Shown here one piece after another: positions 22,506 through 61,139 of a stretch of DNA of 64,000 nucleotides. The first letter of the stretch is position 1, and the number at the start of each line of letters is the position of its first letter. The position numbers and the translations under genes are program-made. The DNA comes from Chiloscyllium plagiosum (Eukaryota): the NCBI RefSeq assembly GCF_004010195.1, contig NC_057752.1, positions 7,631,651-7,695,650 of the forward strand, read 5' to 3'. The notes beneath the pieces are model-generated. The model had not been told where the DNA came from. It worked only from the letters and a program-made list of their open reading frames with translations, and did no database searches.

Positions 22506-23220
22506 TTGGTGTAACTAGAAAAGGCCTAGCAAATGTACTCTCTTAAAATTCAGTTTTAACTTTGTGCCTCTGTCTATGATTCTAACTACCTGTCTGGCAT
22601 GAAGACTTGGATGAGTTGTAATTTACTCTACTTTCATGTTGATAAACTATTCTTTTGATTCCTAGCAACAAATCCAGACTTCTAGCCTTGACTGTATCAA
22701 CCTGCTCAGGAGTTACCTCAGGTTAAATATATAGGTCAATGCACAAGCTGGAATTTCTTCCTCACACCAATTCCAGAGCTCATTTAAAAAATGCCCCTAT
22801 CTTTCCCTACCACAGTCAGGACTTTAATCCATACCTTTATTGTCTTGAAGATCAACATCTCCAACATTATGTTGACTTGTACTATTCACAAGTTACAACT
22901 TGCAGCTACCATGGGTTAGATTTTACCAGCCTTCTGGATGCAGGCTGGGGATCTCATAAAACTGGTGGCAGAAGGCATCCCAAAGGCTTCCCAGTATCCT
23001 CTTGCTGAGGGACTAACAATAGCGAAACCCAACTGGTGGTGGGCAGCTAAGTAAGCCAGTTAATTGACCACTTTTACCAGTATAATGAAGGACACTCACC
23101 ATGTGGGTGTGGTGATTGTAACGAGGTCAGCCAGGTGGACCTCATAGAATATGAGTTCCCTAATTGGGGCTGTTAATCTGGTCAAATCAGGGAGCCCTGG
23201 CTGACTGATATAAACAGGAG

Positions 23221-23287
23221 ATTCAGAGTCTCCTCAGTTTAGGGGACTGACTCTGGTAAACTGTTTTGTAAATAAAAAAAAAAAAAA
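23221..23287 (+). mobile_element. Mini (head+tail only) copy of the non-autonomous LTR-targeting element
   Basis: 35-bp head ATTCAGAGTCTCCTCAG...GACTCTG fused to the tail GTAAACTGTTTTGTAAAT and poly(A), between two TATAAACAGGAG copies (23209-23220 and 23288-23299). Confidence 0.7.
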
Positions 23288-23299
23288 TATAAACAGGAG

Positions 23300-25237
23300 A
23301 TTCAGAGTCTTCTCAGTTTAAGAACTGACTCTGTGCTGGCTGGTGTTACAGTCAGTATGTTACTGTTAGTTTCTGCTTCCTTTTTTGAACTGGCTGAATT
23401 ATTTAGCCAGTTTGTTAACTGGCATTCCTTTTAGTGAGGACTGATTGTTAAATTCCTGATGCACACAATGTGTTTCAGGTGTAGCTCAGTTCTCATTAGG
23501 GGACTGTTGTTTCACTGGCTGGTTACAGCCTGTGTGTGACTCTTTTCGAGAAAAGGACAATGTTAATTTTGTGGTAGGGCTTAGCCCTTGGACTCTAGTT
23601 TCCTTTGTTTTTTGTGTAAGTGTCTTCACTGTTTTTGGTGTTTTGGACTGAGCCCTTGTGGAAGACCTACATTTTACCAGAGGAGCTGTTCCTGTGGGGA
23701 GGCCTAGCCCTGGGACTAGGCCTCTGAAGATTGAACACCTGTGTGTGCGCTGGGAGGTGAGCAGTTGCTGTATCCTGGAGTTTGGGAGAAGACCTTTCCT
23801 TCAGGAGTGGACTAAACCTGTGAGTTAACTGCACCTGTACTGTGTTCCTGTGAGTGGGCCTGGCTCTCCAAGGCTGGGCCAGGACTCCATGAAGGCTGAA
23901 CACCTAGGTGCTGTGGGGTGTACATTTGCTGCCTCCAGGAGTGGACTCTGCCCTTGGTTGCAGACTTTGTTTTTAGCAACGGACTCTGCAGTTTGGAGTG
24001 GACTCTAATTCTGACATTGCACATTGTATACTGGAGTGGACTCTTCCTGGAAATGGATTCCATATGTTGTGGTTCTGTTCGCCGAGCTGAAAGTTTTTGT
24101 TGCAAACGTTTCGTCCCCTGGCTAGGTGACATCATCAGTGCTTGGGAGCCTCCTGCAAAGCGCTTCTTTGATGTTTCCTCCGGTGTTTATAGTGGTCTGT
24201 CCCTGCCGCTTCCGGTTGTCAGTTTCAGCTGTCCGCTGTAGTGGTTGGTATATTGGGTCCAGGTCGATGTGTTTGTTGATGGAATTTGTGGATGAATGCC
24301 ATGCCTCTAGGAATTCCCTGGCTGTTCTGTCTGGCTTGCCCCACGATAGTAGTGTTGTCCCAGTCGAACACACGCAGACAACAAGCAACATGAATTCGAC
24401 TGGGACAACACTACTATCGTGGGGCAAGCCAGACAGAGAACAGCCAGATGGTGGGTAGGCCGTTCTGAGCACTGTCGTCCCGATAAGGTGTACTCGGGAC
24501 GGGCTGTCCTAGAGGTGGTCGAAAGGTGTCCGAGCAGCCGAGAGCCAGAAGGTGCGTAGGGGCGGGCTGAGATCCGGAAGGCTTGTGGGCTACCCTGCAC
24601 GCTGTCGTCCCAGGGAAGGGGACGGGCTGTCCTAGAGGTGGCTGAAAGGTGTGCCAGGGTAGCCCACTGGTCAGAGGCGCAACGGGGTGGGTGAGAGCCC
24701 AATGGTACATAGGGGCAGACTGAGAGCCAGAAGGCGGGTAGCCGTCCTCAGCGCTGTCACCCCAGGCAGGTACCGGGGCAGGCTGCCCCAGAGGTGGTCG
24801 AAAGGTGCTGAGGGTGGTTACTGAAGCCGGAAGGTGGGTAGGCTGTCCTGACCGCTGTCACCCCAGGCGGGTACCAGGGTGGGCTGTCCTAGAGGTGGTA
24901 GAAAAGTGTGTCAGGGCGGACCGAGAGCCGGAAGGTGTGTAGGGGCGGGCTGCCTTAGAGTGGTCGGAAGGTGGGAGGCTCGTGGGCTTGCTGGGTCTGT
25001 ATTGTCTACATTTTTATTATGTAACTGGATTGTCTTATGTATAACGGTCATTGTTGCTGTCTTTTTATATTTGAAACTGGGAATTGTGGTTTGTCCTTAT
25101 TTCCCTGTAAACTGGTTGAACAGTAGGCTTGGGGCCTAGCTTTGCTGCTCCTCTCCCTTGTAAAATTGCTGTTGTATACAGCTGTATATGTTAACTGTTT
25201 TTCTGTAAACAGGTTTGTAGTTTGTTTAATAAAATAT
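23300..25237 (+). mobile_element. Non-autonomous, apparently non-coding A-tailed element, copy 1
   Basis: Highly similar to the reverse complements of 51971-53701 and 58332-60420; ends TTTAATAAAATAT, followed by TATAAACCGGAGT. Confidence 0.85.
24062..24448 (-). mobile_element. Penelope-like 3' fragment (GIY-YIG C-terminus, pLTR with hammerhead motif) with terminal hairpin
   Basis: REFLEAWHSSTNSINKHIDLDPIYQPL on minus; hammerhead core at 24102-24141; inverted repeat 24318-24448. Confidence 0.85.
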
Positions 25238-25250
25238 TATAAACCGGAGT

Positions 25251-25569
25251 CTCCGGGAGAGGTGGGCGCCGCAGGGAGTGGAGTGCATTATTTCCCCCTC
25301 CAACTCTGTTTTGATTTAATCCCTGCCCTCCTTTCACTGTTTGATCACACAGCATTGCCCTTTGATGTGCTTGTCACTGGCCACCCGGGTGTTTCCTTTC
25401 TTCCTGGTGGTGGAAATTTGAATAAAGATTCGTGCACTTTGTGTCTTTCACTGTGTCTCACACCTACACATACACACACACAACATGGGTACTCAGGGAA
25501 AAAAAAATAAGCGCTACCACAGTTAGGCAGTAGTGTGGGGGTAATGAATAATAAAAAAAGTTTTTAAAA
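25251..25569 (+). mobile_element. 5'-truncated Tx1-clade-like LINE 3' end (ORF2 C-terminus, 3' UTR, A-rich tail)
   Basis: 25251-25319 encodes LRERWAPQGVECIISPSNSVLI*, which resembles Tx1-clade ORF2 C-termini as I recall them; then AATAAA and an A-rich tail, followed by ATAAATAGGAGT. Confidence 0.65.
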
Positions 25570-25697
25570 ATAAATAGGAGTGGTTCTGTTCACTCTGAGA
25601 GCTGGCTCTGAGGGAGCTGGATCAGTGTCAAGGACTCTCTACTTGTAAATAAAGGGTGACTTGATGACGGGATACCAACCTCTGTGGAGTTATTTCA

Positions 25698-27200
25698 GTA
25701 TGACAAGAGTGGGATGTGACTTTGGCTAAAGCAGAGTGTAAATACATCCAGATAGAGAAGGAAGGTTTGACGGTCATATTTGGTGTGACAAAGTTCCACC
25801 AATACCTTTACGGATGTGAATTTGTAATAATAATGGACCACAAACCCCTGCTAGGTCTAATTAAAGAGGACAAGATAGTGCTGCCCATAGCTTCAGGCCA
25901 AGTTCAGCAGTGGGCTGTAATATTAAGTGCATATAAATACAACTTGGAACACTGTCCAGGAGGCCAAGTAGTGCATGTGGATGCATTGAGCCGCCTCCCA
26001 TTGGCCCATACACCACTGGTGGTACTGTCACTTGAACAGTCCGTAACTTTTAAAATTTTCTAGGCACCCTTCCAGTCACAGCTGACACTATCAGACTTTG
26101 GATGCAGAAAGATCCAGTCCTGACAAAACTGAAACCGCTGGTGGGGATGGAGGAAACCAACAGGTTGTCATAACCAGAATCAAAACAAGATCACCGTAGA
26201 GGATGTCATTAGTATGGGGAGCAAGGGTGATTGTCCCAAGCAAAGGTCACCACCAGATATTGGCTGAACTCCACCAGGGTCATCTGGGATGTCCAAAGTG
26301 AAGGTGTTGTGAGAAGTTATGTCGGGTGGCCAGGATCGCTGCGTTGGTGGGGCAGTGTCCAGGTGCTAACAAGGGCAAAAATTACTGCCAGCAGCTTCCC
26401 CATTTATGGGAATGGCTGGGTAAACCTGGATTTGTTTACATGTTGACTATGCAGGTCCTTTCATGGGCTTAATGTTCTTCGTCATTGTGGATGCCCACTC
26501 TAAGTGGTTGGATGTGCGTAGAGTTTACTTGTCAAACATAGGGATGATGATAGAAAACCTGCAAGCATCTTCTGCAGTACACAGACTCCTAAAAGTGTTG
26601 GTCACAGGTAACAGGCCACTGTTTACCAGCAAGGAATTTGTGTCTTTCCTAAAGTTGAATAGTATTCAACGTGGTAAGGACAGCTCTAAGCCATCCATCA
26701 TCCAATAGTCTGGCAGAAACAGCTACCCAAACTTTGAAGGCAGGCTTAAATAAACAGCCTACAGTTTCACTAGATACCGAAGTGTCCCGGTTCCAATTTG
26801 ATTATAAGACCACCCCTCATGCAGCTACATGGGTTGGCTCCAGCATAGTTGCTAATGGGGAGAAGGCTCTGCACCAGGTTAGGTCTGATCTTCCAGGGCC
26901 TGGCAGGCAGGGGTGAAATGGCATCAGGAGCTTCAATGCCAGAAACTAGACTCCGCTAAACGAGAGAGATAGTTTACTTCAGGGGGCGAAGTTTGGTGTA
27001 GGAATCTCAGGAATGGCCCTCCATGGGTAAGAGGCATGGCCGATGCGAGGCAGGGCCAGTGACATATAAAATTTGATATATAAAGATGCGATGGTCCTGA
27101 ACAAGCACATGGCTCATATGAAAGCTCCAAGCTCACAGACAGTGCAGGAGCAAAAATGTGCCCTGTTCCTTAACAGCATTCCAACTATTCCAGAACCCGT
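25698..27200 (+). mobile_element. Gypsy A internal remnant (RNase H + integrase); gag/PR/RT deleted
   Basis: YIQIEKEGLTVIFGVTKFHQYLYG...DHKPL...DALSRLPL; DYAGPFMG.MFFVIVDAHSKW; HPSSNSLAE. Confidence 0.9.
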
Positions 27201-28689
27201 GGAATAATTTGGCATTTTGACTTCAAATCTCGTGTTTGAATACTTTCCTCTTGCTTTCTCCTTAAAATGCTTTTTTTTAACTGCAGTGTCAATTTTAACC
27301 ACTTTGGAGGGAACAAAACAGGAGACATCTGAAGTTAATTGAAGACTTACCATTTCCTTTCTCCCCCACAAAGCAGATTACATAACTGGAACTCGGTCTG
27401 CCATTTTAAATTGGAATCTGAGTCGGGGAAGGAGGTGGTTTCCTCAGTAGGCCGAAACTCTCAAGAATAGAAGCCAAGGCCAGAAGAAGTCCAGAAGGAT
27501 ATGTTTGAAACACTTCAAAAAATACTTATGTATTCCTCCAAGACCCAAAACAAAATCTTAGGCCTCCTATGTCTTCCGCCAGCTACACATCCCACTTCTC
27601 CTTCACCACCAACTGGGATTTCGCTCAGGGAGCAATTACTTGGTGGCACGGATAGTTGTCATTTGGCAGCTCTTGCTGCCCAATTTTAACATCTGCTTCT
27701 TTCCGACCTCACAGCTGTTTTGGTAGCTAGTCCACAAGAAGCTTATTAATGAAGGCTAGCTAGGAAAACTGGCTAAGCAGTCGCACTACTGTTGTAAGAT
27801 GAATTCTCACCACTGCTTATCATGTTGTATGAGCTCTCTGGTAGATTTGCTGCCACTATTCTCTTTCCTTGTTGGGTCAACAGGATCTGTTTGGTCTAGC
27901 GTGACAGAGGAAAATCCGTTGATCTTCTGACAAGGAGAGGCTCTTGTCTTTGACATGATGTAGTTTATTGCATAATAGCAACTAAATACAAGTTACACTG
28001 ATGCGATAGATATTGGACTGATTTCTAATTATGTTTTCTTGGCTGAGTGTGAGTAGCTTCAGGTGTTTGGGGATTTGTTTCCACAAGGCCGAGCAAGCTC
28101 TCTTGCTGTATCTTAACCAAACTGTTGTATTGACTACCTATCTGGCACCTATGGCGTCAAACTCCATACCATTCCCAGTACGACTTGCCACTCAGCAGAT
28201 CTCTGCTGAAAGACTGGCATCCCTTGCACCCCTGCCGTCTTTGTGTGACCACTGTGCACCTGGACACATGTTCCTCACCAGCAACATAATGACACAACAG
28301 CCACAAAGGCATACTGTTCACAGCATACAGCTGGCATTGGTGACACTCCCCCCACATATCGATCCATTCTCCTCCTCAATACTGTTTAACCACCAGGCCA
28401 CACGGTTTACCTGTCCTTAGCTACATTCTGTCTAAACTCCCCTTCTAAGTCACTGCGATTCTATCCCCAGAGCCCACAGGAAACCTTTAACTTGTCATTG
28501 TCGAGTAGGGGGACATCACACACAGGCCAGCCATTGGACAATTCCAAACATGAGCTTTTATTTACAGCCAGCAGAAGTGAACAATGCAAACCAGATGTTG
28601 GCATCATAACCAACAATCCACAATGATCTGCTGCACCCAGCTCTTATCTATTGGAGGTGGGTGTCAATGAGGTTCTGTCTGGATTGGAG

Positions 28690-29960
28690 CACTTAATGTA
28701 GCTGAATTCTATCATGGACAATGACAGCTTCTTCCTCCTCAATGTTCTTATCCCTCTCCTCAGATGACTGCTCCTGTTCCCTCAGTCCCTCAACATTTGT
28801 TACATCACCTCATTGCTCGCTCCAATTATGCAAAGCACAGCACGTCAGAATGATGTTACAAGTTCCCCTCCAAACTATTCATCATCCTGACTTGGAAATA
28901 TGTTGCTGTTCCTTCAGTGTCACTGGATCACAATCCTTGAATTCCTTCCCGAACAAAGTTGTGAGTCTACCTACAGCATGTGGACTGTAGTGGTTCAAGA
29001 AGACAGCTTACCACACCTTCTCATGGGGCAACTCAGGATGGCCAATAAATGATGGCCCAGCCTGTGATGCTCACATTCCATGAATGAATTTTTAAAAAGT
29101 CTGTCTGGACGATATTGGAGCTCCCCCTAACCCAGACCAGTCCAAGCAGCAGAACTGCATCTTCAACAGCCCTATAGTGTGCTCTACTATGGCCTTGGTT
29201 GAGACATGGGCGGTACTAAACCTGTGCTCTGCATGAATCAGTGGTTTGCACAATGGTGTCATGAGCCATGGTTGCAGTGGGTAGCCCTTGTACAATGTTC
29301 TGTCTGCTCTGAGGCTCTGTGCATGCTGATTGGCCTGCCAGCATATTGACTTCTGGGTTTGAAAGCCACTGACACACACACAGACCTTGGAAGTGTGCAC
29401 AGTGAATAAACAATGAAAGGGAGTGCTGCCTTTGCAACTCAGTAACCAGCCTTGCAATGCTCCTGGACCGTCAAGCACATCAGATATCTGGGAGCGCTCA
29501 GGATGTAGGAGTTGGGGCAGCTGCCAGGGTAGTGGGCAGACACTTCCAGGAAGTGGGAATGGTGATCACAGATCACCTGAACATGAAAGGAGTGGAATGG
29601 AATCCCTTCCTGTTGATGAACTCCACAGCATAGTGCCACGTGCGTGCAGCCGATGGCACCCTGCAGATGGAGGAAGGCAACTATGTTCCCAAATCTTACC
29701 CTGACTAACAACCACCTCATCATGGAGAAATAAAATGAACCGGTGTGATCTTGCAGAGATGGTATTAGTATTCACAACCACTAGAAAAGGATAGCCTGCA
29801 GGCCAGAAAGAAATTCCTGTAGGTTTCAGGTCCCATTCCAGAATCCAGCAAAATGCAGTCCCAGTGTCCTGGGACTTACAGAGCCTGCTCATCCTCAGGA
29901 AATGGAGTTGGGGTGGGAAAACGCTGGCCCTCCTGCGCACCTCACACATCCTGAGGGACC
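28690..29960 (-). mobile_element. PIF/Harbinger transposase remnant, with a LINE tail inserted at ~28860-29095
   Basis: QGAIGCTHVAL, FHSFHVQVICDH, YPGSCPNSYIL, GYPLQPWLMTP, AHVSTKAIVEHTIGLLKMQFCCLD and IILTCCALHN are HARBI1-like DDE motifs. Confidence 0.82.
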
Positions 29961-39124: not shown

Positions 39125-40791
39125 TTAAAAATGATTTGGAGAAAGAGGGAGCATTTTATATATACTCCCTCTTTCTCCAAATTCAATATAAATTCATAGC
39201 AGGTGGAATTTAATGGAGTAAAATGTACACTATTACATAGAGGAAGGAAAAATGCAAGCAAATGTACTTGACGATACAGTTGAAAGAAACTAAGGGCACT
39301 GAGGAGTCTGATCCAGCATACAACAAAGCCAATCAAATATTGATTAGTGTTACCCAAACTGTCAGCTACCAGCCAAAGGATGTTACATATGATCAAACTG
39401 TACAGTCTGTTTGCATGTTGAGCACTGTGTTAAAGATTATAATTTTTAAACAAACCACTTCCTATTCTCACCACTTATAAGCAGACTGATTTCATTTTTC
39501 CCCTTCTTTGCAAAAAAAGTGTGGGGGCTCGACGTTACGGGTATAAGCCCTTCATCAGGATTTGAGACTCTCCTGCTCCTCGGATGCTGCCTGACCTGCT
39601 GTGCTTTTCCAGCACCACACTCTTCAACTCTGATCTCCAGCGTGTGCAGTCCTCATTTTCTCCTAAAGCAATAGTGGGTGTATTTTCTCCATTCTTTCTA
39701 TTTGTGGACCCTGACTTCATAAGAACCTGAAAAACATTGTTGTAATGTTAAATCAGAAGTAGGGTAAATTTCACACATTTTTAGATGTAAGGAAATACTT
39801 TGCAATGTATGTAACTTTATCTTCTGGTTCACAGTTTTGAGAAAAGTTGATTACTTGCAGAGAGCACAAACTCAAGCTCTTGGATACTTTTTGCAGGTCA
39901 GAGGCTTTTCCATTGCAGCCTAAGTTTGGAAGTTTTGATATTGTCGGTAGATGTCATACAGAGCAGGTTGATTCCTTAACTGACTGCTGTTTCAAAAGCA
40001 TGTGGACATGAGGCAATTGGATTCAGAACTGTGGGAGTCATGTGACCAAGCCTTCTTGTGGAGATGAAACAGTTACCATCAAGACAAAGGTTTGCATTGA
40101 AGATGGCTAAATGTTTGTGGCCCATTTCAGAGGGGAAGTGGAAAGCCGGTAGTACATTTTCTTACAGGGTAGGGATTTTTTTTCTTGGAGATTCCTCTGT
40201 TGCTGAAGCAGATTGGAACACAATACCTCCCATTCCAGTCCCATTAGGAGGTACATGAGATGTTCATCATCTGGCTGATTTTGGCTTCTGANNNNNNNNN
40301 NNNNNNNNNNNNNNNNNNNNNNNNNNNNNNNNNNNNNNNNNNNNNNNNNNNNNNNNNNNNNNNNNNNNNNNNNNNNNNNNNNNNNNNNNNNNNNNNNNNN
40401 NNNNNNNNNNNNNNNNNNNNNNNNNNNNNNNNNNNNNNNNNNNNNNNNNNNNNNNNNNNNNNNNNNNNNNNNNNNNNNNNNNNNNNNNNNNNNNNNNNNN
40501 NNNNNNNNNNNNNNNNNNNNNNNNNNNNNNNNNNNNNNNNNNNNNNNNNNNNNNNNNNNNNNNNNNNNNNNNNNNNNNNNNNNNNNNNNNNNNNNNNNNN
40601 NNNNNNNNNNNNNNNNNNNNNNNNNNNNNNNNNNNNNNNNNNNNNNNNNNNNNNNNNNNNNNNNNNNNNNNNNNNNNNNNNNNNNNNNNNNNNNNNNNNN
40701 NNNNNNNNNNNNNNNNNNNNNNNNNNNNNNNNNNNNNNNNNNNNNNNNNNNNNNNNNNNNNNNNNNNNNNNNNNNNNNNNNNNNNNNNNNN

Positions 40792-40929
40792 ATGGCGGTG
40801 GCCACATACCGGACGTCTACCGCTTCCCTGCTCGCTATGTCCTGCGGTAGCGTCCAGCCCAGGCCCTCGGCACCCAGCACCTCCCCGACCCTGGTCACCC
40901 TCGCTGCCACGGCCCTCCCCTCCGACAAC
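40792..40929 (-). mobile_element. 5'-truncated Tx1-clade-like LINE ORF2 fragment inserted in the Gypsy B 3' LTR (continues into gap)
   Basis: GC-rich open frame LSEGRAVAARVTRVGEVLGAEGLGWTLPQDIA..., resembling the post-RT 'G.TRV.DLL....W' region of Tx1/L1-type ORF2; starts right after GATATAAACAGGAGTGT. Confidence 0.55.
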
Positions 40930-45289: not shown

Positions 45290-46549
45290 ATGGCCTTAAC
45301 AGCTGCCCGCAGCCCTGGGCAGGAGGTTCGAAACACAGTCCAGGTGTCTGTGAAGAAGGTAGAGGGTCGTACACCGGTGGATTGCATCCTGTTTATTAAG
45401 AAAGTGCTGCTGGGATGCTGTGGGTTCGCTGCAGCGGACGTGGCTGCTGGGATGCTGTGGGTTCGCTGCAGCGGACGTGTACTGCCTGCAGGATTTCCCT
45501 GGGGCAGACTACTTTGATGTGACCTTCAGGAGTGTGAAGCAGTGCGAACAGCTCCTGAAGGTCTTCAAGGAGAAGGAAGGGGAGCCGCTGTTCTCCATCT
45601 TGTCGGCAACCCCATTGTGTGTGCTTCCTGCACAGAGGAATCGGGTTGTTACAATCCATATGTACAACCCCTATGTTCCAGCGGCTGACGTCCTGACCTT
45701 CCTGACGTGGCGGCAGACTGCAAGGTGACCATCTGCAGGAACTGCAAACAGGAGGGTCACCTGACTAAGGACTGTCAGGAAGCAAAGAGCTGCAACCTGT
45801 GCGGAGAGGCGGGTCACATGTACAAGACCTGCCCAAGACGCGGGGGCCCCAGTTGCGCACAGATGGCTGGAGGTGGCAATGTGAGCCGTGGACCCCCAAA
45901 GACCAGTAAGGTCCACACAGACAGCAGGGAAACGGAGTCTGGTGGCACCCAGAAAGAAGAACAGGCCGGAGTGGCAACCAGCGGAGAGACACAGCAGCTG
46001 ATCCTAGCTCTCGCTGGGCAGATGGAAGCAATGGAGGAGGAGGTAATCGAGCAGACAGAGGAGTGGATACCTGTTAAAAACAGGAAGAGAAAATCCGGCC
46101 AGGCCCCCAAAGCCTCCCAGCAAAGGGGGAAAAGACAGCTGAACGAGGGAGGGACGGCCAGCTCTTCAGATGTGGAAGACGGGCGCACAGAATGTCATCA
46201 CCACCAGAAGAAGAGACAGAGCGCCATAGCTAAAGAGGAGGGCATCTCCTCCCAACCAGGAAACAACAGACCCCCCGAAGTCCACCTTCCACCCAATGAG
46301 AACCAGGGGGTACCCACTGCCCCACAACTACAGACAACTGAGAGCTGTGATCCTCTGACAGTCCCATTGTCAGACACAGAACTGGACGGTGCGGACCCTT
46401 GCCTTGGCTCGATGACTCCAGAGCAGGTAAATGACCCCAGTGAGAGCCTGGATAGCTACCTCAGCCCAGCGAGGGTCCAGCAGTTCGTGCTCACCATGGG
46501 GATGCAGACAGGTACCCCAGATACAGGACAGTCAAATGGACAACGGTAA
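45290..46549 (+). pseudogene. Tx1-type ORF1 / ZCCHC3-like zinc-knuckle protein, frameshifted
   Basis: MALTAARSPGQEVRNTVQV...DVYCLQDFPGADYFDVTF...VTIHMYNPYVP; CRNCKQEGHLTKDC and CNLCGEAGHMYKTC (CX2CX4HX4C); 37-bp duplication and an internal deletion near 45705. Confidence 0.82.
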
Positions 46550-46976: not shown

Positions 46977-47212
46977 TGAAATAACTCCACAGAGGCCGGT
47001 ATCTCATCACTAAGTCCCCCTTTATTTACACATGGAGAGTCCTTGACACTGATCCAGCTCCCTCAGAGTCAGCTCTCAGAGTGAACAGAACCTCTGACCC
47101 TCCTGTTTCTATCTGTCAGCCAGGGCTCCCTAATTGGACTAGATTAACAGCGCCAATCATGGAACTCATATTCTATGAGATCTACCTGGCTGACCTCGTT
47201 ACAATCATCACA
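46977..47212 (-). repeat. Intact (empty) Gypsy LTR, 236 bp
   Basis: TG...CA termini, AATAAA, adjacent PBS; reference copy for the interrupted LTRs. Confidence 0.9.
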
Positions 47213-47584
47213 TGATACAGGAATGTAATATTGTTCTGAATAGATATATTAAGATGGGTCAGATGGTCTTCCTTAACTGTAAATACATTTTAAAAAGGCT
47301 AATATACTCTGTGCAAAGGTGTTTTTTATACACCTTGATCAATGATATATCCTTTTGATAAAACTAGCCAGTCTGTTCTTTTAAGACAAGATATTATCGA
47401 TGAGTAACATGAGATCTACTTCAGACCTAGAACGCATTCCATCTGTCCCTGAACTAAAAGCCAACAAACAGAATTACAGTGTCATGTTGTTGGGGTTCAT
47501 TCCTACAGTAGATATTTTCTTTTAAACAAATTAAATAATAGATAAGTAAACAGCCTTTACATTTTTATAGAACAGAATGTTTAT

Positions 47585-51035: not shown

Positions 51036-51335
51036 AAGAACTCTTCAGTTCTGAAGAAAGGTCACTCGACCCAAAACGTTGACTCTACTTTCTCTCCATG
51101 GCTGCTGAGTTTCTGCAGCAATTTCTGTTTCTGTTTCAGATTTCCAGCATCTGCAGCTCTTTTGTTTATTTTCCATGAAGATTGTCCAGGTCTTGCTCCA
51201 GTTGGACATGGACAGCATATAATTCTTTCCATGTCCTGCATGGAAATGCCAAGGTGAGCTTTTGCCAGCAAACCATAATTAGCTACAATCAAGGTGTCTA
51301 TGACCGGATTAAAGGTATTGTCCTAACTATTGTTG

Positions 51336-51465
51336 ATTCCTGAGGAAGGGCTCATGCCCGAAACGTCGATTCTCCTGTTCCTTGGATGCTGCCTGACCTG
51401 CTACGCTTTTCCAGCAACACATTTTCAGCTCTGATCTCCAGCATCTGCAGTCCTCATTTTCTCCT
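51336..51465 (+). repeat. Penelope-type short repeat with intact minimal hammerhead core
   Basis: GATTC-CTGAGGA-AGGGC-TCAT-GCCC-GAAAC-GTC-GATTC; flanked by the direct repeat TATTGTCCTAACT (~51317 and ~51465). Confidence 0.75.
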
Positions 51466-51970
51466 ATTGTCCTAACTCGCCAGCAATTTTTTAAAAAAGA
51501 ATTATTTTCATGGTATCTCGGTCAGGAAAAAGCCAGATGCGAAATAATGAGACTTGCTGCTACCATGGATCATTGGGCTGGCACATCCAATGACTCAGTT
51601 AGTCAACTGTGGCCACACTTGAGGTTTCCATTCCCTTAATTTCTGTCCATCACTTTTACATCCAAGCCACTTCAGAATTGATCCAATTTTTCCACTCCGT
51701 CCACTAATGTGCTCTCTTTGCCAGTTACAGCCAATGCAAATAAGCAAACCAAGGATGTGTACTCTGAGCACATTATTAGTCAGTGGTGTCAGAGCCATTT
51801 TTTAAATCATGCCCGATTTGTTTATGCTAGTAGAGGAGAATCAGCTCCCCCTGTTTACTGAATAAATAAAATACAGTCTGGGAACTGAAATAACTCCACA
51901 GAGGCTGCTATCACGTCAGCATGTCATCCTTTATTTACAGATGAACAGTATCACTGACACTCCTATTTAT

Positions 51971-53701
51971 TTTTTTAAATTTTATTAAACATTTACAAAA
52001 GAGTTTACAGAAAAACAGTTAACATTTACAGCTGTATACAACAGCAATTTTACAAGGGAGAGGAGCAGCAAAGCCAGGCCCCAAACCCGACCGTTCAACC
52101 AGTTTACAGGGAAATGAGGACAAACCACAAATCCCAGTTTCAAATGTACCAATGTCATTGTTGATGTCTTTGCATAGGAGACAATCCTGTTACATAGGAA
52201 AGTGCAGACAATACAGACCCAGCAAGCCCCCGTGCCTCCCACCTTCCGGCCACTCTAAGGCAGCCCGCCCCTACGCTGCTCCTGGCTCTCGGCCCAGCCC
52301 ATGCCTCTACCAGTTCTTGGTCCACCCTGACACACCTTACAACCACCTCTCGGACAGCCCACCCCCGTACCTGCCCGAGGTGACAGCACTGAGGATGGCT
52401 ACCCGCCTTCTGGCTCTCGGTCTGCCCCTACGTACCATTGGACTCTCACCCACCCCGATGCGCCGTCCGACCAGTGGGCTATCCTGACACACCTTCCGGC
52501 CAGCCCTCTAGGACAGCCCATCCCTTACCTGGGATGACAGCGTGCAGGGTAGCCCACAAACCTTTTGGATCTCAGCCTGCCCCTATGCGCCTTCTGGCTC
52601 TCAGCTGCTCTGACACACCTTCCGACCACCTCTAGGACAGCCTGTCCCGAGCATCCCTTCTCGGGACGACAGTGCTCAGAATGGTCTACCCACCATCTGG
52701 CTCTCGGGGCGACTGGCATCAGGGTGGCCTACCCACCCTCCGGCCCTCAGGGTGACAGCTTTCAGGACGACCCATGAGGCTCCCAGCTCACAGTAAGGCC
52801 TGCCAGACCCAGGGACACACAAGACAGTGCAAGTGATAGACCCAACAAATGCCACAATACAGTTAATTACCAAAAAACACAGAGTCCTTTCTGGTGCACA
52901 CAGAGTCCAGATATAGAGTCTTCAAAGTGTAGAGTCCATTCTCAGGAACAGAGTCCACTCCAGTTTTTGAGGTGCATTGTCCAAAATGGAGTCCACTCCA
53001 AATGGTAGAGTTCACGCCTGAAGGCAGCAAATGCACACCCCACAGCACACAGGTGTTCAGTCTCCACGGAGTCCTGACCCAGCCTTGGAAAACCAGGCCC
53101 ACTCACAGGAACAGTACATTGTACAGGTGCAGTTAACTCACAGGTTTGGTCCACTCCCAAAGGGAAGGTCTTCACCCAAACTCCAGGATACAGCAACTGC
53201 TCACCTCCCAGCGCACACACAGGTGTTCAATCTTCAGAGGCCTAGTCCCAGGGCTAGGCCTCCCCACAGGAACAGCTCCTCTGGTAAAATGTATGTCTTC
53301 CACAAGGGCTCAGTCCAAAACACCAAAAACAGTGAAGACACTTACACAAAAAACAAAGGAAACTAGAGTCCAAGGGCTAAGCCCTACCACAAAATTAACA
53401 TTGTCCTTTTCTCAGAAAGAGAAAGGAGAGAAAAGAGTAACACACAGGCTGTAACCAGCCAGTGAAACAACAGTCCCCTAATGAGAACTGAGCTACACCT
53501 GAAACACATTATGCACATCAGGAGTTTAACAATCAGTCCTCACTAAAAGGAATGCCAGTTAACAAACTGGCTAAATAATTCAGCCAGTTCAGGAATCAGG
53601 TTTCCCCCTCAAAAAAAAGGAAGCAGAAACTAACAGTAACATACTGATTGTAGCACCAACCAGCACAGAGTCAGTCCCCCTAAATTGAGGAGACTCTGAA
53701 T
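51971..53701 (-). mobile_element. Non-autonomous A-tailed element, copy 2
   Basis: Flanked on both sides by ATAAATAGGAG (minus; 53702-53712 and 51960-51970); same head and tail as copy 1. Confidence 0.88.
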
Positions 53702-53976
53702 CTCCTATTTATATCTGTCAGCCAGGGCTCCCTGGTTGGACCAGATTAACAGCCCCAATCAGGGAACTCATTCTATGAGATCCATGTGGCTGACCTCGTT
53801 ACAGTCTGAGGATATACGCTGGTCCTTTTGCTTGGAGAGCCTCCTGGGGCGTTTTAGCACCAGGTCAGGTTCCTCCGACCAGATATCTGACATGGACGGC
53901 ATGTTGCGCCAGGCACGCCTTGGTAGAATTTCTCTCTTTTTCCGGCATCAAACGTATTGAGGTGACTACATCAGTG

Positions 53977-54300
53977 GGCGGCACGGTGGCACAGTGGTTA
54001 GCACTGCTGCCTCACAGCGCCAGAGACCCGGGTTCAATTCCCGCCTCAGGTGACTGACTGTGTGGAGTTTGCACATTCTCCCCGTGTCTGCATGGGTTTC
54101 CTCCGGGTGCTCCGGTTTCCTCCCACAGTCCAAAAAATGTGCAGATTAGGTGAATTGACCATGCTAAATTGCCTGTAGTGTTAGGTGCAGGGGTAAATGT
54201 AGGGGAATGGGTCTGGGTGGGTGCGCTTCAGCGGGTCGGTGTGGACTTGTTGGGCCGAAGGGCCTGTTTCCACACTGTTAGTAATCTAATCTAATCTAAT
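53977..54300 (+). mobile_element. HE1-like V-SINE (tRNA head, V domain, CR1-type tail)
   Basis: GGCACGGTGGCACAGTGGTTAGC...GGGTTCAATTCC; TGTGTGGAGTTTGCACATTCTCCCCGTGTCTGC...GGGTGCTCCGGTTTCCTCCCAC; GGGCCGAAGGGCCTGTTTCC followed by (TAATC)n. Confidence 0.9.
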
Positions 54301-56254
54301 CATGTCCATCTCTGATTCAGAGGACTCGACAACGCTTGATGGACAGAGTGAATCTATGGGCACCGGCAGCATTTCAGAATGGTCTGAGGAGCCGGGCATG
54401 TCTTACTCCCGCACAATTCGCAAAATTGCACCTTTCATCTGGTTCACATGCTTGTTCAGGACCATCGCTGCTAGCCGAATTTTATATGTCACTGGACCTG
54501 ACCTCGTGTTGACCATGCCTCTTACACCAAACTGTCTCTTTCACTTGGGTGGAGTCTTATTTCTGGGATTATTGTTTGTGATGCTTTTTCATCCTCCATC
54601 CCCAGGTCTGGGAAGATCAGAGCTAACCTGGTGCGGTGCCTTCTCCCCATTAGTGACTCTGCCAATGCTATCCCTGTAGTTGCACGAGGGGTGGTCCTAT
54701 AATCAAACAGGAACCAGGACAGTTTGGTAACTAGTGAAACTGTAGGCTGTTTCTTCAATCCAGCCTTCAAGTTTGGACAGCTTTTAATGCCAGGCCATCG
54801 GATGATGGGTGGTATGGAGCCATCCTTATATGTTGAATCCCACTCAACATTAGGAAATACCCATATTCCCTGCTGGTAAGTGATGGCCCATTTTCTGTGG
54901 CCAACAGCTTCAAGACTCCATGTGTAGAAAAAGATGTGCACAGTTTTCCTTCTGTGATCCCAGTGTTTGACGAATGGACCCGATACACGTCCAACCACTT
55001 TGGGCATCTACAATGAGTACGAACATTCAGTCCATGAAAGGACCGGCATAGTCGATGTGCCACTGTGTCCAAGGTTTACCCAATCATTCCCACAGATGTG
55101 GGGGAACTGCTGGCAGTAATCTTTGTTCTTGTTGGCACTCTGGGCACTGCCCCACCAATGTGACTATGTTTATATGTAGACCTGATCACCAGACATAACT
55201 TCGCACCATCATCTTCACTTTGGATACCCCTGGATGGCCCTGGTGGAGATCAGCCAGTGTTTGACAGCAACCTTTGTTCAGGATGATCACTCTCACTCCC
55301 ATAACAATATGTCATCCTCTACCAGGAGCTGGACTCTCTGGGTCCAAAAAGGTTTTGATTCTAGTTGTGACAGGCCTTTGGTTTCCCCATTAATACCAGT
55401 TGTTTCAATTTTGCCAGGGCAGGGTCTTTCTGCATCCAAAGTCCAATCTTGTCAGCTGTGATTGGGATTGTGTCCAGAAAATTTAATCCCTTTACAGACT
55501 CTTCCATTGGGGGTACCACTGATGATGGACCTACTAATGGGAGGGAGCTCAATGCTTCCACATTTGCTAATCGGCCTCCTGGATGGTGGTCCAACTTGTA
55601 ATTACAAGCACTTATTCTTAAAGACCACCGTTGAATGTGGCCTGAAACTATGGGCAGCGCTGCCTTGTCCTCTTTAAGCATACCATGTAAGGGTTTGTGG
55701 TCCGTACTTATCATATATTTTCATCCATAAAGGTTTTGGTGGAATGTACTGACTCCAAATACAACTGCCAATCCTTCTATTTCTATCTGGGCGTATTTAT
55801 GCTTTGCATTCACCCAAGTCCTGGATGCATGCGCTATTGGGCATTCCTCTCCACTGGGCCTCCTCTGATCTAATACCACTTCGATGCTGTATAGGAAGGC
55901 ATTGCACGTCAATACCAGATTTCACTTGGGATCATAAATGTGCCAATGCCTGAGAGGATGATAGCTGTGTCTTCACTTTCCTGAAGACAATGGCTTGGCT
56001 ATGCAACCATTTCAAAAGCTGACCCTTTTTTAAGATGCAAAGATGCCAGGATGGAGGCCAGGTTATGTCTGAACTTTCTGTAATAATTCACCAACCCAAG
56101 GAAAGCTCCAGTACAGATGTGGGAACCAGGACGCCTTTAATCACCCTCACTTTATTTCCAATGGGTGTAACCTGGTTTTGTCGACTCTGTAGCCCAATTA
56201 GGTCACTTGGGGTGCCTGGAACAAATAATTTTCCCTTCTCAGTCATACACCTCA

Positions 56255-57080
56255 TACAGTCATAGTATCATGGAGATGTACAGCATGGGAACAGATCTTT
56301 TGGTCCTACCTGTTCGTGCCGACCAGATATGCTAAATAAATCCAGTCCCCTTTGCCAGCAGTTGGACCATATCCCTCTAAACCCATCCTAATCATATACC
56401 CATCCAGATGCCTTTGAAATGTTGCAATTGTACTAGCCTCCACCACTTCCTCTGGCAGCTCATTCCATACACATACCACCCTCTGCATGAAAAACTTGCC
56501 CCTTAGGCCCATTTTAAATCTTCCCCCTGTCACCTTAAATCTATGCCCTCTAGTTTTGGACTCCCCCACCCCAGGTAAAATATCTTATTTACCTTACCTG
56601 TGCCCCTCATGATTTTATAAAACTCTATAAGGTCATCCCTCAGCCTCTGACGCTCCAGGGAAAATAGCCCCAGCCTATTCAGCCTGTCTCTACCCAGTCT
56701 CCAACCCTGGCAACATGCTTGTAAATCTTTTCTACACCCTTTCAAGTTTCACAACATCCTTCCTATTGCAGGAGACCAGAATTGCACGCAGTATTCCAAA
56801 GGGTGCCTAACAGCCACAACATGACCTCCTAACTACTATACTCTATGCTCTGACCAATAAAGGAAAGCATACTAAATACTTTCTTCACTATCCTATCATT
56901 GTTCCACTTTCAAGGGACTATGAACCTGCACTCCAAGGTCTCTTTGTTCAGCAACACTCCCTAGGACCTGACCATTAAGTGTATAAGATTTGCTTTCCCA
57001 AAATGCAGCACCTCGCATTTATCTAAATTAAACTCCATCTGCCACTCTTTGGCCCATTGGCCCATCTGATCAAGATCCCG
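56255..57080 (-). mobile_element. CR1 3' fragment nested in Gypsy C RT
   Basis: KTRGHRFKV, FFMQRVVCVWNELPEEVVEA; same family as 5300-7900. Confidence 0.9.
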
Positions 57081-58331
57081 CTTGCCTTAGAAAAACACCT
57101 TAGGACTACATCCAAGTTCTCTAAGTGTTCCTTATTAGTTTTCCCTGTTATTAGGACATCATCTAGATAAATGACGACCTGCGGTAGACCTTGCAAAATG
57201 CTCTCCATCATCCGCTGAAAAATTAAATAGGCAGAAGTTACCCCAAATGGCAGTCTTGTATGTTGCTACTAACCCTTATGGAAACCCTTCTGGGAACCCT
57301 CATTTAACCACAATTGCAAATACACATGGCTCATATCCAGCTTCATGAAAGACAGCCCACCCCCACCCCCAGCCAGCATTGTGTATAAATCCTCTGTGCG
57401 AGGCATTGGGTATTTACCCAGCTGTGAGAAGCGGTTTACCAGTTGTTTAAAATCCTCACAAAGGCAAACTAACCCGTTGGGCTTCACAATCAGTACAACT
57501 GGTACTGCCCATTCCACAAACTGGATGGGTTTGATGATTCCTTCACTTTCCAACCTCTGATTTCTGACTCTACTTTTGCCCATAAGGCAAATGGCACTGG
57601 ACGGGTCTTGCAGAATCGTGGAATTGCTTCCTGGTCAATATGTAAGGTGACCTTGGCTCCTTTGATAGTCCCTAGACCTTCCTGAAAAACATATAGGTAT
57701 TTAATTAGGACTTCACCCAGGCAGTCATTTTCTAACTGAAAAATGTTAAGCCAATCAAAATGAATCTTTCTCAATTTCCCTCATTAAGCTTGGGCCTGAG
57801 TCTTTTACTACAACCAGTTGTAACTGAACCAGCTGCTTTTGATAAGAGACCGAAATCGAAGTTGTACTCTTAATCTGTAAAGGTTCTCTGGGATCAGTTC
57901 TCAGTCTCGCCGAGGTATTGCACAAACATATGGGTTGGAGACCAAAGTGAATTTTGTTCAAGACTGGTTCTGTAATCACTGAAACGGCTGCGCCGGTATC
58001 AACCTCCTTTAGAGCTGGGTGACCATTTAACCAGACGTTTATTTTGATTGGTTCTGATTTGGATGTTGCTAAGTAATTTAACTGTTCCAGACCAAATGCC
58101 ATGGGCTTTCCAGGGTGTGCACTCTCCTGGATACCAGCTGATGTGTTCTCTTACTCAACTCAGGTCTAATAGGACTCCTTTGCTATCTGAAGTCTGCATA
58201 CTGGCAACAACTACAATGGCTTGCTGTATCCATCACCAAGTCACCCTTTATTGACCGGTCCTTGACTTTTGTACTGCCTCATTCAGAATCAGGCACCAGA
58301 GTGTCAGCATCTCTGCAACTTCTCTTTTTAT

Positions 58332-60420
58332 TATTTTATTAAACAATTACAAAAGAGTTTACAGAAAAACAGTTAACATTTACAGCTGTATACAACAGCA
58401 ATTTTACAAGGGAGAGGAGCAGCAAAGCCAGGCCCCAAACCCTACCGTTCAACCAGTTTACAGGGAAATGAGGACAAACTACAAATCCCAGTTTCAAATA
58501 TGAAAAGACATCAACAATGACATTTCTACATGAGACAATCCTGTTACATAGGAACGTGCAGACAATACAGACCCAGCAAGCCCCCGTCCCTCTAAGGCAG
58601 CCCGCCCCTACTCACCTTCCGGCTCTCGATCCACCCCATGCCCCTTCCAGTTCTCGGTCCGCCCTGACACACCTTACGACCAGCTCTAGGACAGCCCATC
58701 CCGGTACCCGCCCGAGGTGACAGCGGTCAGGACGGCCTACCCACCTTCCGGCTTCACTAACCACCCTCAGCACCTTTCGACCACCTCTCGGACAGCCCGC
58801 CATGATACCTGCCCAGGGTGACACCACTGAGGACGGCTACCTGCCTTCTGGCTCTTGGTCTGCCCCTACGTACCATTGGGCTCTCACCCACCCAAATGCA
58901 CCATCCGGCCTGTGAACTGCCCTGACACACCTTCCAGCCACCTCTAGGACAGCCCGTCCCCTTCCCCAGGGACGACAGCGTGCAGGGTAGCCCATAAGCC
59001 TTCCGGATCTCAGCCTGCCCCTACGCACCTTCTGGCTCTTGGCTGCTCTGACGCCTCCCGACCACCTCTAGGACAGCCCATCCCTTCTCAGGGCGACAGC
59101 GCTCAGAACGGCGTACCCACCATATGGTTCTTGGGGTGACAGCTTTCAGGACGACCCATAAGGCTCCCAGCTCACAGTAAGGCCTGCCAGACCCAGGGAC
59201 ACACAAGACAGTACAAGTGATAGACCCAACTAACACCACAATACAGTTAATTACCAAAAAACAGAGTCCTTTCTGGTACACATTCCAAATATAGAGTCTT
59301 CAAAATATAGAGTCCATTTCCAGGAAGAGTCCACTCCAGTATACGATGTACATTGTCAGAAATAGAGTCCGCTCCAAACTGCAGAGTCCATTGCTAAAAA
59401 CAGAGTCCACAACCGAGGGCAAAGTCCACTCCTGGAGGCAGCAAATGCACACCCCACAGCACACAGGTGTTCAGTCTCAATGGAGTCCTGGCCCAGCCTT
59501 GGAGAGCCAGGCCCACTCACAGGAACACAGTACATAGTACAGGTGCAGTTAACTCACAGGGGTTTGGTCCATTCCTGAAGGAAAGGTCTTCTCCCAAACT
59601 CCAGGATACAGCAANNNNNNNNNNNNNNNNNNNNNNNNNNNNNNNNNNNNNNNNNNNNNNNNNNNNNNNNNNNNNNNNNNNNNNNNNNNNNNNNNNNNNN
59701 NNNNNNNNNNNNNNNNNNNNNNNNNNNNNNNNNNNNNNNNNNNNNNNNNNNNNNNNNNNNNNNNNNNNNNNNNNNNNNNNNNNNNNNNNNNNNNNNNNNN
59801 NNNNNNNNNNNNNNNNNNNNNNNNNNNNNNNNNNNNNNNNNNNNNNNNNNNNNNNNNNNNNNNNNNNNNNNNNNNNNNNNNNNNNNNNNNNNNNNNNNNN
59901 NNNNNNNNNNNNNNNNNNNNNNNNNNNNNNNNNNNNNNNNNNNNNNNNNNNNNNNNNNNNNNNNNNNNNNNNNNNNNNNNNNNNNNNNNNNNNNNNNNNN
60001 NNNNNNNNNNNNNNNNNNNNNNNNNNNNNNNNNNNNNNNNNNNNNNNNNNNNNNNNNNNNNNNNNNNNNNNNNNNNNNNNNNNNNNNNNNNNNNNNNNNN
60101 NNNNNNNNNNNNNNNNNNNNNNNNNNNNNNNNNNNNNNNNNNNNNNNNNNNNNNNNNNNNNNACAGGCTGTAACCAGCCAGTGAAACAACAGTCCCCTAA
60201 TGAGAACTGAGCTACACCTGAAACACATTGTGTGCATCAGGAGTTTAACAATCAGTCCTCACTAAAAGGAATGCCAGTTAACAAACTGGCTAAATAATTC
60301 AGCCAGTTCAGGAATCAGGTTTCCCCCTCCCAAAAAAAGGAAGCAGAAACTAACAGTAACATACTGACTGTAAAACCAACCAGCACAGAGTCAGTCCCCC
60401 AAACTGAGGAGACTCTGAAT
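58332..60420 (-). mobile_element. Non-autonomous A-tailed element, copy 3 (spans gap)
   Basis: Head follows TATAAACAGGAG (60421-60432); tail TTTAATAAAATAATAAAAA; body homologous to copies 1 and 2. Confidence 0.85.
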
Positions 60421-61139
60421 CTCCTGTTTATATCAGTCAGCCAGGGCTCCCTGATTTGACCAGATTAACAGCCTCAATCAGGGAACTCAGAATCTATGAG
60501 GTCCACCTGGCTGACCTCATATCATCACTGCAGGAACAATTTGGCCTGGCCTGGTCATATAGAGGTGTTGAGAATGAAGCTACTGAATACAAAACAATCT
60601 CTGAAATTGCACTACTACTGTTGACTCACTTAGCTATGTAGTCCACTATTTGGTTTTGGCAGAGGTTGTGTAGTAATATGAGTGCACTGAGAGCTATGAA
60701 AATAGCATAATTGAATTAAATATGATGAAAATGGAATTATTATATGGCCTTAAGGCATTTGGAATCACATTTTGTGTTCCTCATTTTTCGTGGCAGCAAA
60801 TACTCAGGAAATAAGTCCTTTTTTGATTTAACTAGCAATTTCTCTTTTGTCTGTGGTGGCCAATCAAATTGTTACTGTACAAGCACACTTGTAGTGACAT
60901 TGTAACTTTGTAATTTACGACTTCTATGTGGTAGCTTTATATATTGGTTGCTACATCCTAACTAATTTTATGGTCAGTTATTCCATCTTGATGATATTGT
61001 GGCATTGTAATTTACAACTTCTAATTAATTATTGAATTGAACTGGGTATACATTAGTATACATTTAGTATACATTTAGAAACTGAGGTGCAAATAAAAGT
61101 TACAGTTAGCTGTATATCACCATTACCCTGCAGGGAGTC

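Follow-up and report, generated by a model that had tools for sequence, protein, structure and literature searches.

A Tx1-clade LINE that inserts preferentially beside the TATA box of a Ty3/Gypsy LTR in Chiloscyllium plagiosum

Target preference is a trait of many members of the Tx1 clade of LINEs, not of all. As described in the main text of Kojima (2015, PMC4494074), two crocodilian Tx1 families, Tx1-8_Crp and Tx1-4_AMi, inserted preferentially into LTR retrotransposons; Tx1L has as its target the non-autonomous DNA transposon Tx1D; and Tx1-Mar LINEs share the target Mariner-N4_AMi with SINEU-3. Transcription from the flanking target, with 5' additions of target-related sequence, is proposed in the same text (Kojima 2015, PMC4494074). 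The habit of targeting LTRs is already in print there for crocodilian Tx1, and the shark family described here is a further case of that kind. An earlier note on this DNA, which knew of no described family with such a target, is too strong at the level of kind. A search of the literature, outside Repbase and Dfam, found no cartilaginous-fish Tx1 element targeting an LTR.

The window, that is, the whole stretch analysed, comprises 64,000 nt of the forward strand of Chiloscyllium plagiosum (GCF_004010195.1, NC_057752.1 positions 7,631,651–7,695,650; host genome size 3.56 Gb). Five copies of a Ty3/Gypsy LTR, 238 bp, are present. As claimed in the earlier note, four of the five are broken at one point, directly 3' of TATAAAYAGGAG (23220, 40933, 53702, 60421), a spot of about 14 bases beside the LTR TATA box. 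The inserts in the broken LTRs are LTR-sense and A-tailed, with motif repeats on their flanks. The repeats announced in that note for the visible 3' junctions stand at 23288, 25238, 25569 and 51960; near 58332 the motif is degenerate. The motif TATAAAYAGGAG occurs 10 times in the window at ≤1 mismatch, against 0.65 expected; 10 occurrences were reached in 0 of 100 shuffles. LTR copy A (23108–25697, plus strand) is broken at 23220. Its U3 part (23108–23220) aligns to LTR 1–113 of the uninterrupted copy and ends in the target motif TATAAACAGGAG (23209–23220); its motif repeat with R-U5 (25569–25697) aligns to LTR 103–238 and lacks 7 nt directly after the motif at 25569. The 5' LTR of Gypsy copy B (46977–47212, minus strand) is uninterrupted, 238 bp long, with an empty target site at LTR 102–113. 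The 3' LTR of the same copy is occupied: its U3 part (40933–41045, minus strand), preceded by the polypurine tract agaagaagaggga, ends in the motif and is broken at 40933. The leader after the copy B 5' LTR adjoins LTRs at other genome loci too, and Gypsy internal sequence is flanked by the same LTR at other loci. More than 7303 first-look candidates for the LTR were found in the genome.

Gypsy copy C lies on the minus strand. The composite 3' LTR (about 51886–53813) consists of U3 with motif to 53702, a long non-coding element (53701–51972), a motif repeat (51971–51960) and R-U5. The internal region (53814–58201) retains remnants of protease, RT, RNase H and integrase; no gag was seen in it. 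The composite 5' LTR (58202–60532) consists of U3 with motif (60532–60421), a second long element (60420–58333, with an N gap at 59615–60162), the degenerate motif and a diverged R-U5. LTR ends are TG..CA. A 5-bp target duplication, GTTCC, is present at 51885–51881 and 60537–60533. Pfam matches on copy C and on the homologues A and B are gag-asp_proteas, RVT_1, RT_RNaseH and Integrase_H2C2; in the PDB, the RNase H piece matches Ty3 and nothing else. With these LTR ends, a short duplication, a polypurine tract and the PR-RT-RH-IN set, the target element is a Ty3/Gypsy LTR retrotransposon. Both LTRs of copy C carry the long element inside one 5-bp duplication, and the two elements probably go back to a single insertion that both LTRs inherited. 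For a large part of the long element, the two LTRs resemble each other no more closely than they resemble copy A; the probable shared inheritance rests on the improbability of two insertions, not on sequence. The six inserts of the window are therefore probably not six independent events, and the long element is also copied by LTR-type replication. The occupied LTR has passed at least one further LTR-type cycle, which speaks against the suggestion of the earlier note that the guest disables the host retrotransposon.

All six inserts are LTR-sense. Copy A holds three of them, all on the plus strand. A mini copy (23221–23287) is made of long-element head and tail with a 14-A tail, its head matching the long-element heads at 53701 and 60420; the motif repeat follows at 23288–23299. 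A long non-coding A-tailed element (23300–25237) has self-matches to 53714–53001 and 60433–60163. After a further motif repeat (25238–25249), the target-site duplication copy, follows a 5'-truncated LINE 3' end (25250–25568) with about the last 22 ORF2 codons, 3' UTR and A-rich tail. The count of six given in the earlier note stands; its reading of this last insert as a fragment of the ORF2 body does not. The insert matches the head region of a genomic LINE taken as reference (copy C6). It has 3489 first-look genome candidates; the best 40 are 85–88% identical, and most of these extend upstream into LINE ORF2. A 5'-truncated fragment coding for the ORF2 C-terminus (40792–40932, minus strand, sense to the LTR) occupies the copy B 3' LTR. 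It is 90% identical to the ORF2 region of copy C6 and runs from 40932 to 40792 into a 500-N gap (40292–40791), which hides its 3' part. Other genome matches to it continue upstream into LINE sequence or have a different junction (39 of 39), so the window LINE is truncated at 40932.

ORF2 of a genomic LINE copy shares 52% identity with Xenopus Tx1 ORF2 over 712 aa (P0004 = YTX2_XENLA; 751 bits), as expected from the Tx1 assignment in the earlier note; human L1 ORF2p scores 126 bits. Top named matches are YTX2 or fish 'pol-like' proteins. RVT_1 is matched at E 2.6e-33. The Exo_endo_phos match, on the frameshifted EN of the copy, is weak (E 0.0013); in the EN part, 110 aa align at 41% identity to Tx1 residues 101–210. 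The C-terminal alignment reaches the C..C motif, after which an N run ends the locus. The sole Pfam match of ORF1 is a weak zinc knuckle. An N-terminal APE-type endonuclease, an RT and a C-terminal Cys motif are the domains of a Tx1 ORF2, and a target sequence preference, a trait of the clade, is likewise present. Placed by similarity, the autonomous insert is a Tx1-clade LINE. At the start of the full-length LINE stand 120 bp that duplicate a part of its 3' UTR, then an LTR R-like piece, a start common to at least 30 of 40 copies. An exact-word search with the LINE head gave 73 matches, of which 12 abut CAGGAG and most others are internal 3' UTR copies; so small a number does not fix the full-length 5' end.

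The genome counts come from samples short of a census (the top-scoring 40 candidates, or the first 100 places in a listing), and the first-100 listings were sorted by hand and eye. With 17 free positions added, the exact 18-mer GACAGATATAAACAGGAG gave 1841 genome matches, against 0 and 1 for controls. Among the first 100 of the 1841, about 65 run on as LTR, 15 as LINE 3' UTR starting at no fewer than 10 different points, 5 as long-element head, 7 as unknown sequence and 1 as a bare motif repeat; 3 break later and 4 have LTR deletions. About 30 of the first 100 listed LTR copies with the exact 18-mer are broken at the target site, and over the whole genome the insertions of the LINE family there number in the hundreds. 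The different LINE starts mean that the insertions are independent. In contigs of a same-species run, U3 position 23220 is joined to six different LINE 3' UTR points. The 5' junction of inserts is confined to 0–5 nt after CAGGAG. The LTR halves overlap by 12–16 nt: U3 matches end at LTR 112–120, R matches start at 103–108. TAAACAGGAGTGTCAGA has 624 matches; in the first 100, the sequence just before the match is an A-rich tail in 52, U3 in 42 and other sequence in 6. Of 29 loci, 18 have AACAGGAG (≤1 mismatch) no more than 70 nt from the LINE tail, compared with 101 of 1953 control windows, motif counts at 3' junctions being inflated by 3' transduction of LTR tags. Of 29 sampled LINE 3' ends, 13 lie in the LTR, 3 in motif-flanked stacks, 8 off-target with their own 8–15-bp duplications, and a further 5 are not placeable. 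The LINE thus uses one position and one orientation, with target duplications and independent events, as a target-specific LINE does; its use of the target is not near-exclusive. 'Preferential' is the accurate word: the preference for the LTR site put forward in that note is very strong, strand-specific and seen in many independent events, and is not absolute.

The long element is non-coding, its ORFs having no Pfam match. First-look genome candidates number 4629 for the head and 2344 for the tail. Nucleotides 3–44 of the head align to LTR nt 116–159 with a score of 19, against 6.5 ± 1.4 for shuffled sequence (19 reached in 0 of 2000 shuffles). The tail is unlike the LINE tail. The copy A element contains a 101-bp tandem array (24713–24943, TRF) and a nested, unrelated, very-high-copy repeat (about 24034–24443). 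Rfam gave a sub-threshold miRNA-family match in a nested repeat only. Over 23000–25800, Rfam found no tRNA, 7SL, 5S, snRNA or other Pol III-type head. The 1.9-kb element and the mini copy do not have the Pol III head and LINE-matching tail of a SINE; a more apt name is non-autonomous poly(A) retroposon, the head being LTR-derived.

The reading considered likely is that of a Tx1-clade LINE that very strongly prefers a single site of an abundant 238-bp Ty3/Gypsy LTR and inserts by target-primed reverse transcription, with passengers and hitch-hiking included. The nick in the bottom strand would fall in the T-rich stretch complementary to the TATA box (...GAT^ATAAACAGGAG...), and the top strand would be cut 11–17 nt downstream, 0–5 nt past CAGGAG. 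The resulting insert would be LTR-sense, with a random 5' truncation, an A-tail and, on its flanks, a 12–16-bp duplication, which recreates the target, so that inserts can stack in tandem. Non-autonomous passengers (the 1.9-kb element and its mini derivative) would use the site of the LINE. The site would lie upstream of the expected LTR start, i.e. in U3, so that an insert in the 3' LTR would be copied to both LTRs on Gypsy replication, as in copy C.

Three explanations dispense with specific targeting by the LINE or with its nicking. An ordinary L1-like endonuclease favouring TTTAT/A-type sites may have met a hot spot in an abundant and open LTR. The nick site resembles a generic L1-type site, off-target duplications likewise start with A-rich runs, and LTR candidates exceed 7303. 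However, 13–16 of 29 sampled LINE 3' ends fall in one site of a 3.56-Gb genome, the 5' junction keeps to its 0–5 nt, the remainder of the motif has look-alikes at several off-target sites (e.g. AAAAAGGAG, AACAGG), and target-specific members are described in the Tx1 clade in the text cited above (Kojima 2015, PMC4494074); a hot spot is improbable. In a second account, targeting was not repeated: Gypsy replication spread a single ancestral composite LTR from which all interrupted LTRs descend, the case named in the earlier note as what would undo its claim. This account holds in part for the 1.9-kb element, which lies in both copy C LTRs within one duplication and, among the 40 best genome matches, has the same U3/long-element junction in at least 25. 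For the LINE it is refuted by at least 10 truncation points at one site; moreover, the order of insert stacks differs between loci, copy B has one empty and one occupied LTR, and several loci have the long-element tail in short tandem copies. As a general account it is very improbable. Just as little credit is due to a capture of the inserts during Gypsy reverse transcription, through a template switch to polyadenylated RNAs close to the U3/R border, with no nick made in DNA by the LINE endonuclease: the site is close to the expected border, the inserts are polyadenylated RNAs and composite LTRs are inherited, yet a 12–16-bp duplication flanks each insert, solo LTRs and single LTRs of pairs are occupied, off-target LINE copies show classic 8–15-bp duplications, and the LINE encodes its own APE-type endonuclease.

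A further explanation keeps the LINE and shifts the specificity to its RNA, a 3' tag pairing with the nicked LTR and the endonuclease being weakly selective. At 12 of 29 LINE copies, a 19–42-nt LTR piece is followed by a second A-run, and 27 of 29 have no AATAAA or ATTAAA in the last 60 nt of the LINE. The tag persists in off-target copies (5 of 8, 21–40 nt), in contrast to many LTR insertions, which are seamless. The principle is known for R1 and R2 (cited in Kojima 2015, PMC4494074). Against it, the partly motif-like off-target sites point to protein recognition, and many LTR insertions (e.g. L067, L080, L082) keep tag, second A-run and motif, so that insertion was primed on the terminal poly(A) and the site was still reached. 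RNA-led specificity has an appreciable chance, and is the less likely view. Under preferential targeting by the LINE, the endonuclease recognition supposed in the earlier note and the RNA tag, a second route, may act together. Resident copies would be transcribed from the LTR promoter, to which the composition of the LINE 5' UTR and the LTR-like head of the long element point indirectly. The A-tail with the following TATAAA would form an AAUAAA signal, so that transcripts would end 20–40 nt inside the LTR with a target-derived 3' tag, and this tag may pair with the nicked target and assist endonuclease recognition in aiming the next insertion. With about 30 nt between TATA and start, transcription would begin 13–18 nt inside the insert, a position that the model has yet to account for. 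In raw single-cell poly(A) reads, depth is up to 252 on the LINE 3' UTR and 33 or less on U3, and neither starts nor ends form peaks; since the reads cover about 2% of the run and the stretch has many copies, the difference in depth says little about transcription. It is proposed tentatively, as a possibility rather doubtful in full, that the guest uses the TATA box three ways (nick site; poly(A) signal with a 20–40-nt guiding target copy; U3 promoter), and that LINE and Gypsy amplify each other by mutual hitch-hiking, the guest not simply killing its host.

The case gives a junction-level view of a target-specific LINE living inside the promoter of another retrotransposon, whose LTR family runs to thousands of copies, with a guest spread by the host element's own replication and passengers sharing the site. 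If the tag-guided and promoter-borrowing steps are true, the system would be a small, natural instance of an APE-type LINE whose choice of site is RNA-assisted, and would bear on the evolution of LINE targeting and on aiming retrotransposon machinery at chosen sites. For annotation, composite LTRs of up to 2.6 kb are not to be taken for a separate LTR family.

Among described systems, Tx1L of Xenopus laevis is like the shark LINE in its ORF2 (identity given above) and, in the text cited, in a fixed site in another transposon, hence in composite units; the target is a DNA transposon, in contrast to an LTR promoter region here. R1 and R2 of 28S rDNA belong to other clades and have a host gene, not a transposon, as target; the R2 endonuclease is restriction-like. 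They resemble the proposed model in dependence on target transcription and in a target-derived RNA 3' end aiding precise insertion, as cited by Kojima (2015). Tx1-Mar and SINEU-3, as described there, likewise combine an autonomous Tx1 with non-autonomous retroposons on one transposon target; the passengers here differ in having no snRNA head, the target is an LTR, and host replication also copies the passenger. For Tx1-8_Crp and Tx1-4_AMi, the main text of Kojima (2015, PMC4494074) gives no site within the LTR element, occupancy or passengers, and the comparison is by description. Their hosts are crocodilian, whereas the host here is a cartilaginous fish; in both cases a Tx1-clade LINE has an LTR retrotransposon family as its preferred target.

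The motif TATAAAYAGGAG, which includes a TATA box and whose 3′ part is CAGGAG, occurs ten times in the window at no more than one mismatch (0.65 expected). Five copies of a 238-bp repeat, identified by self-comparison and alignment, belong to three Ty3/Gypsy copies, A, B and C. As the earlier note had reported, the repeat is interrupted at one point, directly after the motif (LTR positions 102–113), in four of the five. LTR of A at 23108–25697 (+), interrupted. LTRs of B at 47212–46977 (−, 5′), uninterrupted, and from 41045 (−, 3′), interrupted. LTRs of C at 60532–58202 (−, 5′) and about 53813–51886 (−, 3′), both interrupted. The interruption of A consists of three inserts, with the motif repeated after each: a 67-bp mini element with a 14-A tail, a 1.94-kb non-coding element and a 319-bp A-tailed piece. 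Each LTR of C contains a 1.9-kb element. The insert of the B 3′ LTR is a GC-rich coding fragment extending into an N gap (40292–40791), which conceals its 3′ junction. Other N gaps are at 12936–13083 and, within the long element of the C 5′ LTR, at 59615–60162.

The repeat is a Ty3/Gypsy LTR. In copy C the LTR ends are TG..CA, with an exact 5-bp duplication, GTTCC, at both sides. A polypurine tract stands before the B 3′ LTR, and remnants of protease, reverse transcriptase, RNase H and integrase lie between the LTR repeats; in the PDB, the RNase H piece matches Ty3 alone. The 3.56-Gb assembly holds 7303 first-look LTR candidates. Of a further 29 genomic copies without interruption, several adjoin the same leader or integrase-side sequence as B, and at least 14 appear solo within 1.5 kb.

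Gypsy copies internally deleted (25698–27180; 58201–57758), with internal regions 74–81% identical to one another versus 88–96% for the LTR pieces. RNase H comes almost immediately after the LTR in A; protease follows the 5′ LTR in C, and gag is absent. An ORF1-like LINE gene (45363–46546, +) with ZCCHC3-type RNA-binding domains and CCHC knuckles lies antisense within B, between leader and protease; it lacks nucleotide similarity to the Tx1 LINE copy read here and so represents a different LINE family. DDE_Tnp_4 (Harbinger/PIF-type) transposase remnants are present at 29095–29771 (−; E 4e-8).

One genomic locus contains both the B 3′ fragment and the 319-bp piece, equally oriented and separated by about 1.2 kb; the two are parts of one element. 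Its ORF2, taken from one genomic copy, matches RVT_1 (E 2.6e-33) and, weakly and on a frameshifted stretch, an APE-type endonuclease. The top match among solved structures is human L1 ORF2p (126 bits). A search of a large protein set returned Xenopus Tx1 ORF2 (YTX2_XENLA, 751 bits), along with sea-turtle proteins and fish 'YTX2' and 'pol-like' proteins. Pairwise identity to Xenopus Tx1 ORF2 is 52% over 712 aa, and 41% over 110 aa for the endonuclease part. By this similarity the autonomous insert is assigned to the Tx1 clade of LINEs, and the Tx1-like character proposed for the ORF2 fragments is upheld.

At L094, a genomic locus with a LINE copy outside the window, the LINE 5′ region upstream of ORF1 (L094:559–1500) consists of a long series of imperfect repeats, open in several frames and Pro/Leu/Cys-rich. 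At L094:1–480, three consecutive units of about 300–450 bp share the same LINE 3′ UTR start right after CAGGAG. Together with exact-word matches elsewhere, they suggest a short, 3′-UTR-only derivative with a fixed 5′ end, re-inserted in tandem.

Occupied LTRs could descend from one ancestral composite LTR or result from separate insertions. In the genome, 1841 sites match an exact 18-mer that ends the U3 part of the LTR, with 17 free positions after it (control 0 and 1). Taken in contig order, the first 100 were hand sorted by the bases that come next: the LTR continues in about 65, the LINE 3′ UTR follows in 15, with at least ten different start points, the long-element head in 5, unnamed sequence in 7 and a bare motif repeat in 1; the break lies 11–14 nt further on in 3, and LTR-internal deletions account for 4. 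The junction is always 0–5 nt after CAGGAG in these 100. In contigs of a same-species run, U3 position 23220 adjoins six different LINE 3′ UTR points and, in 11 contigs, the R part of the LTR (uninterrupted form). On the 3′ side, the motif plus R start has 624 matches; in the first 100, hand sorted, it is preceded by an A-rich tail in 52, by U3 in 42 and by other sequence in 6. From the best 40 of 3489 candidates for the LINE 3′ UTR, 30 loci were cut, 29 outside the window and the window itself. At 18 of the 29, AACAGGAG occurs, with at most one mismatch, no more than 70 nt from the LINE tail, versus 101 of 1953 control windows from the same loci. The LTR halves, at loci where both can be seen, share 12–16 nt (U3 matches end at LTR 112–120, R matches start at 103–108), and this overlap is a target duplication. 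The differing LINE start points, the 3′ junctions and copy B, with its 3′ LTR occupied and its 5′ LTR empty, exclude that the LINE inserts all go back to one ancestral composite LTR, an origin that the earlier note had held open.

Both junctions were read at the 29 non-window loci. LINE 3′ end within the LTR at 13, in a motif-flanked stack at 3, at an unrelated site with its own 8–15-bp duplication at 8, and not placeable at 5. All off-target duplications have an A-rich start, and some are motif-like (AAAAAGGAG..., ..AACAGG.., TTAATCAAGAGTT). The preference of the LINE for the LTR site is strong, not exclusive.

An LTR piece of 19–42 nt, beginning at the motif and followed by a second A-run, stands after the LINE A-tail at 12 of 29 loci, including 5 of 8 off-target copies. 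In 27 of 29 copies the final 60 nt of the LINE contain neither AATAAA nor ATTAAA, and at 3′ junctions the A-tail and the TAAAC of the target usually form AATAAA. Transcripts of LTR-resident copies may be polyadenylated 15–40 nt inside the LTR and would thereby bear a target-derived 3′ tag. At the LTR such a tag could pair with the nicked bottom strand, giving a seamless junction; at other sites the terminal poly(A) would prime and the tag would remain visible.

Every insert is in sense orientation, at a site that follows the TATA box and precedes the expected start. In the copy read, the full-length LINE opens right after CAGGAG with 120 bp that duplicate part of the LINE 3′ UTR, followed by an R-like LTR piece that has lost AATAAA; of the 40 best genome matches, at least 30 have this whole 5′ region. 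The first 44 nt of the long element, a 1.9-kb non-coding passenger retroposon, show a colinear alignment to the LTR stretch immediately 3′ of the site (score 19 versus 6.5 ± 1.4 in shuffles; 0 of 2000 shuffles at 19). Judged from sequence, both features are compatible with source transcripts begun upstream of the element proper, within an occupied LTR. If the start lay about 30 nt past the TATA box, it would fall 13–18 nt within the insert, a position that transcription from the LTR does not account for. No start peaks were present in the RNA run (multicopy stretch, about 2% of the run read).

The long element has 4629 first-look genomic candidates by its head and 2344 by its tail. Among the 47 tail matches listed, the motif usually follows, and seven loci have short tandem tail copies; the long element has thus been re-inserted at the site. 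It is probably also inherited through Gypsy replication. About 5 in 100 LTRs (first 100 listed) contain it, so C is unlikely to have been hit twice independently; in a 3′ LTR, an insert that lies upstream of the transcription start belongs to U3 and is thus carried into both LTRs when Gypsy next replicates. Copy C, with the long element in both LTRs inside one 5-bp duplication, speaks against the proposal that an insert disables its host. Comparison of composite LTRs did not show the two of C as closest relatives. The long element of A contains an unrelated nested repeat (24034–24443), absent from the copies in C, with a summed depth in same-species contigs of about 1–2 million versus 0.13–0.18 million for the LTR U3. 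It has a long hairpin and a sub-threshold Rfam match to the MIR9672 precursor family (24327–24436, −; 67.7 bits, gathering score 74).

No cartilaginous-fish Tx1 of this LTR-targeting kind was found in the literature (Repbase and Dfam outside this scope), nor any earlier description of the 3′ tag, the chimeric 5′ UTR or inheritance via composite LTRs. According to Kojima (2015; PMC4494074), many Tx1 families are target-specific: Tx1 inserts in a piggyBac-type element, Keno in U2 genes, Kibi and Koshi in microsatellites, and crocodilian Tx1 families share a Mariner family as target with SINEU-3. Two crocodilian families, Tx1-8_Crp and Tx1-4_AMi, are reported there to insert preferentially into LTR retrotransposons. 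The flanking target is considered there as a possible source of transcription. Beside these families, a Tx1 LINE targeting an LTR site is real and well documented here.
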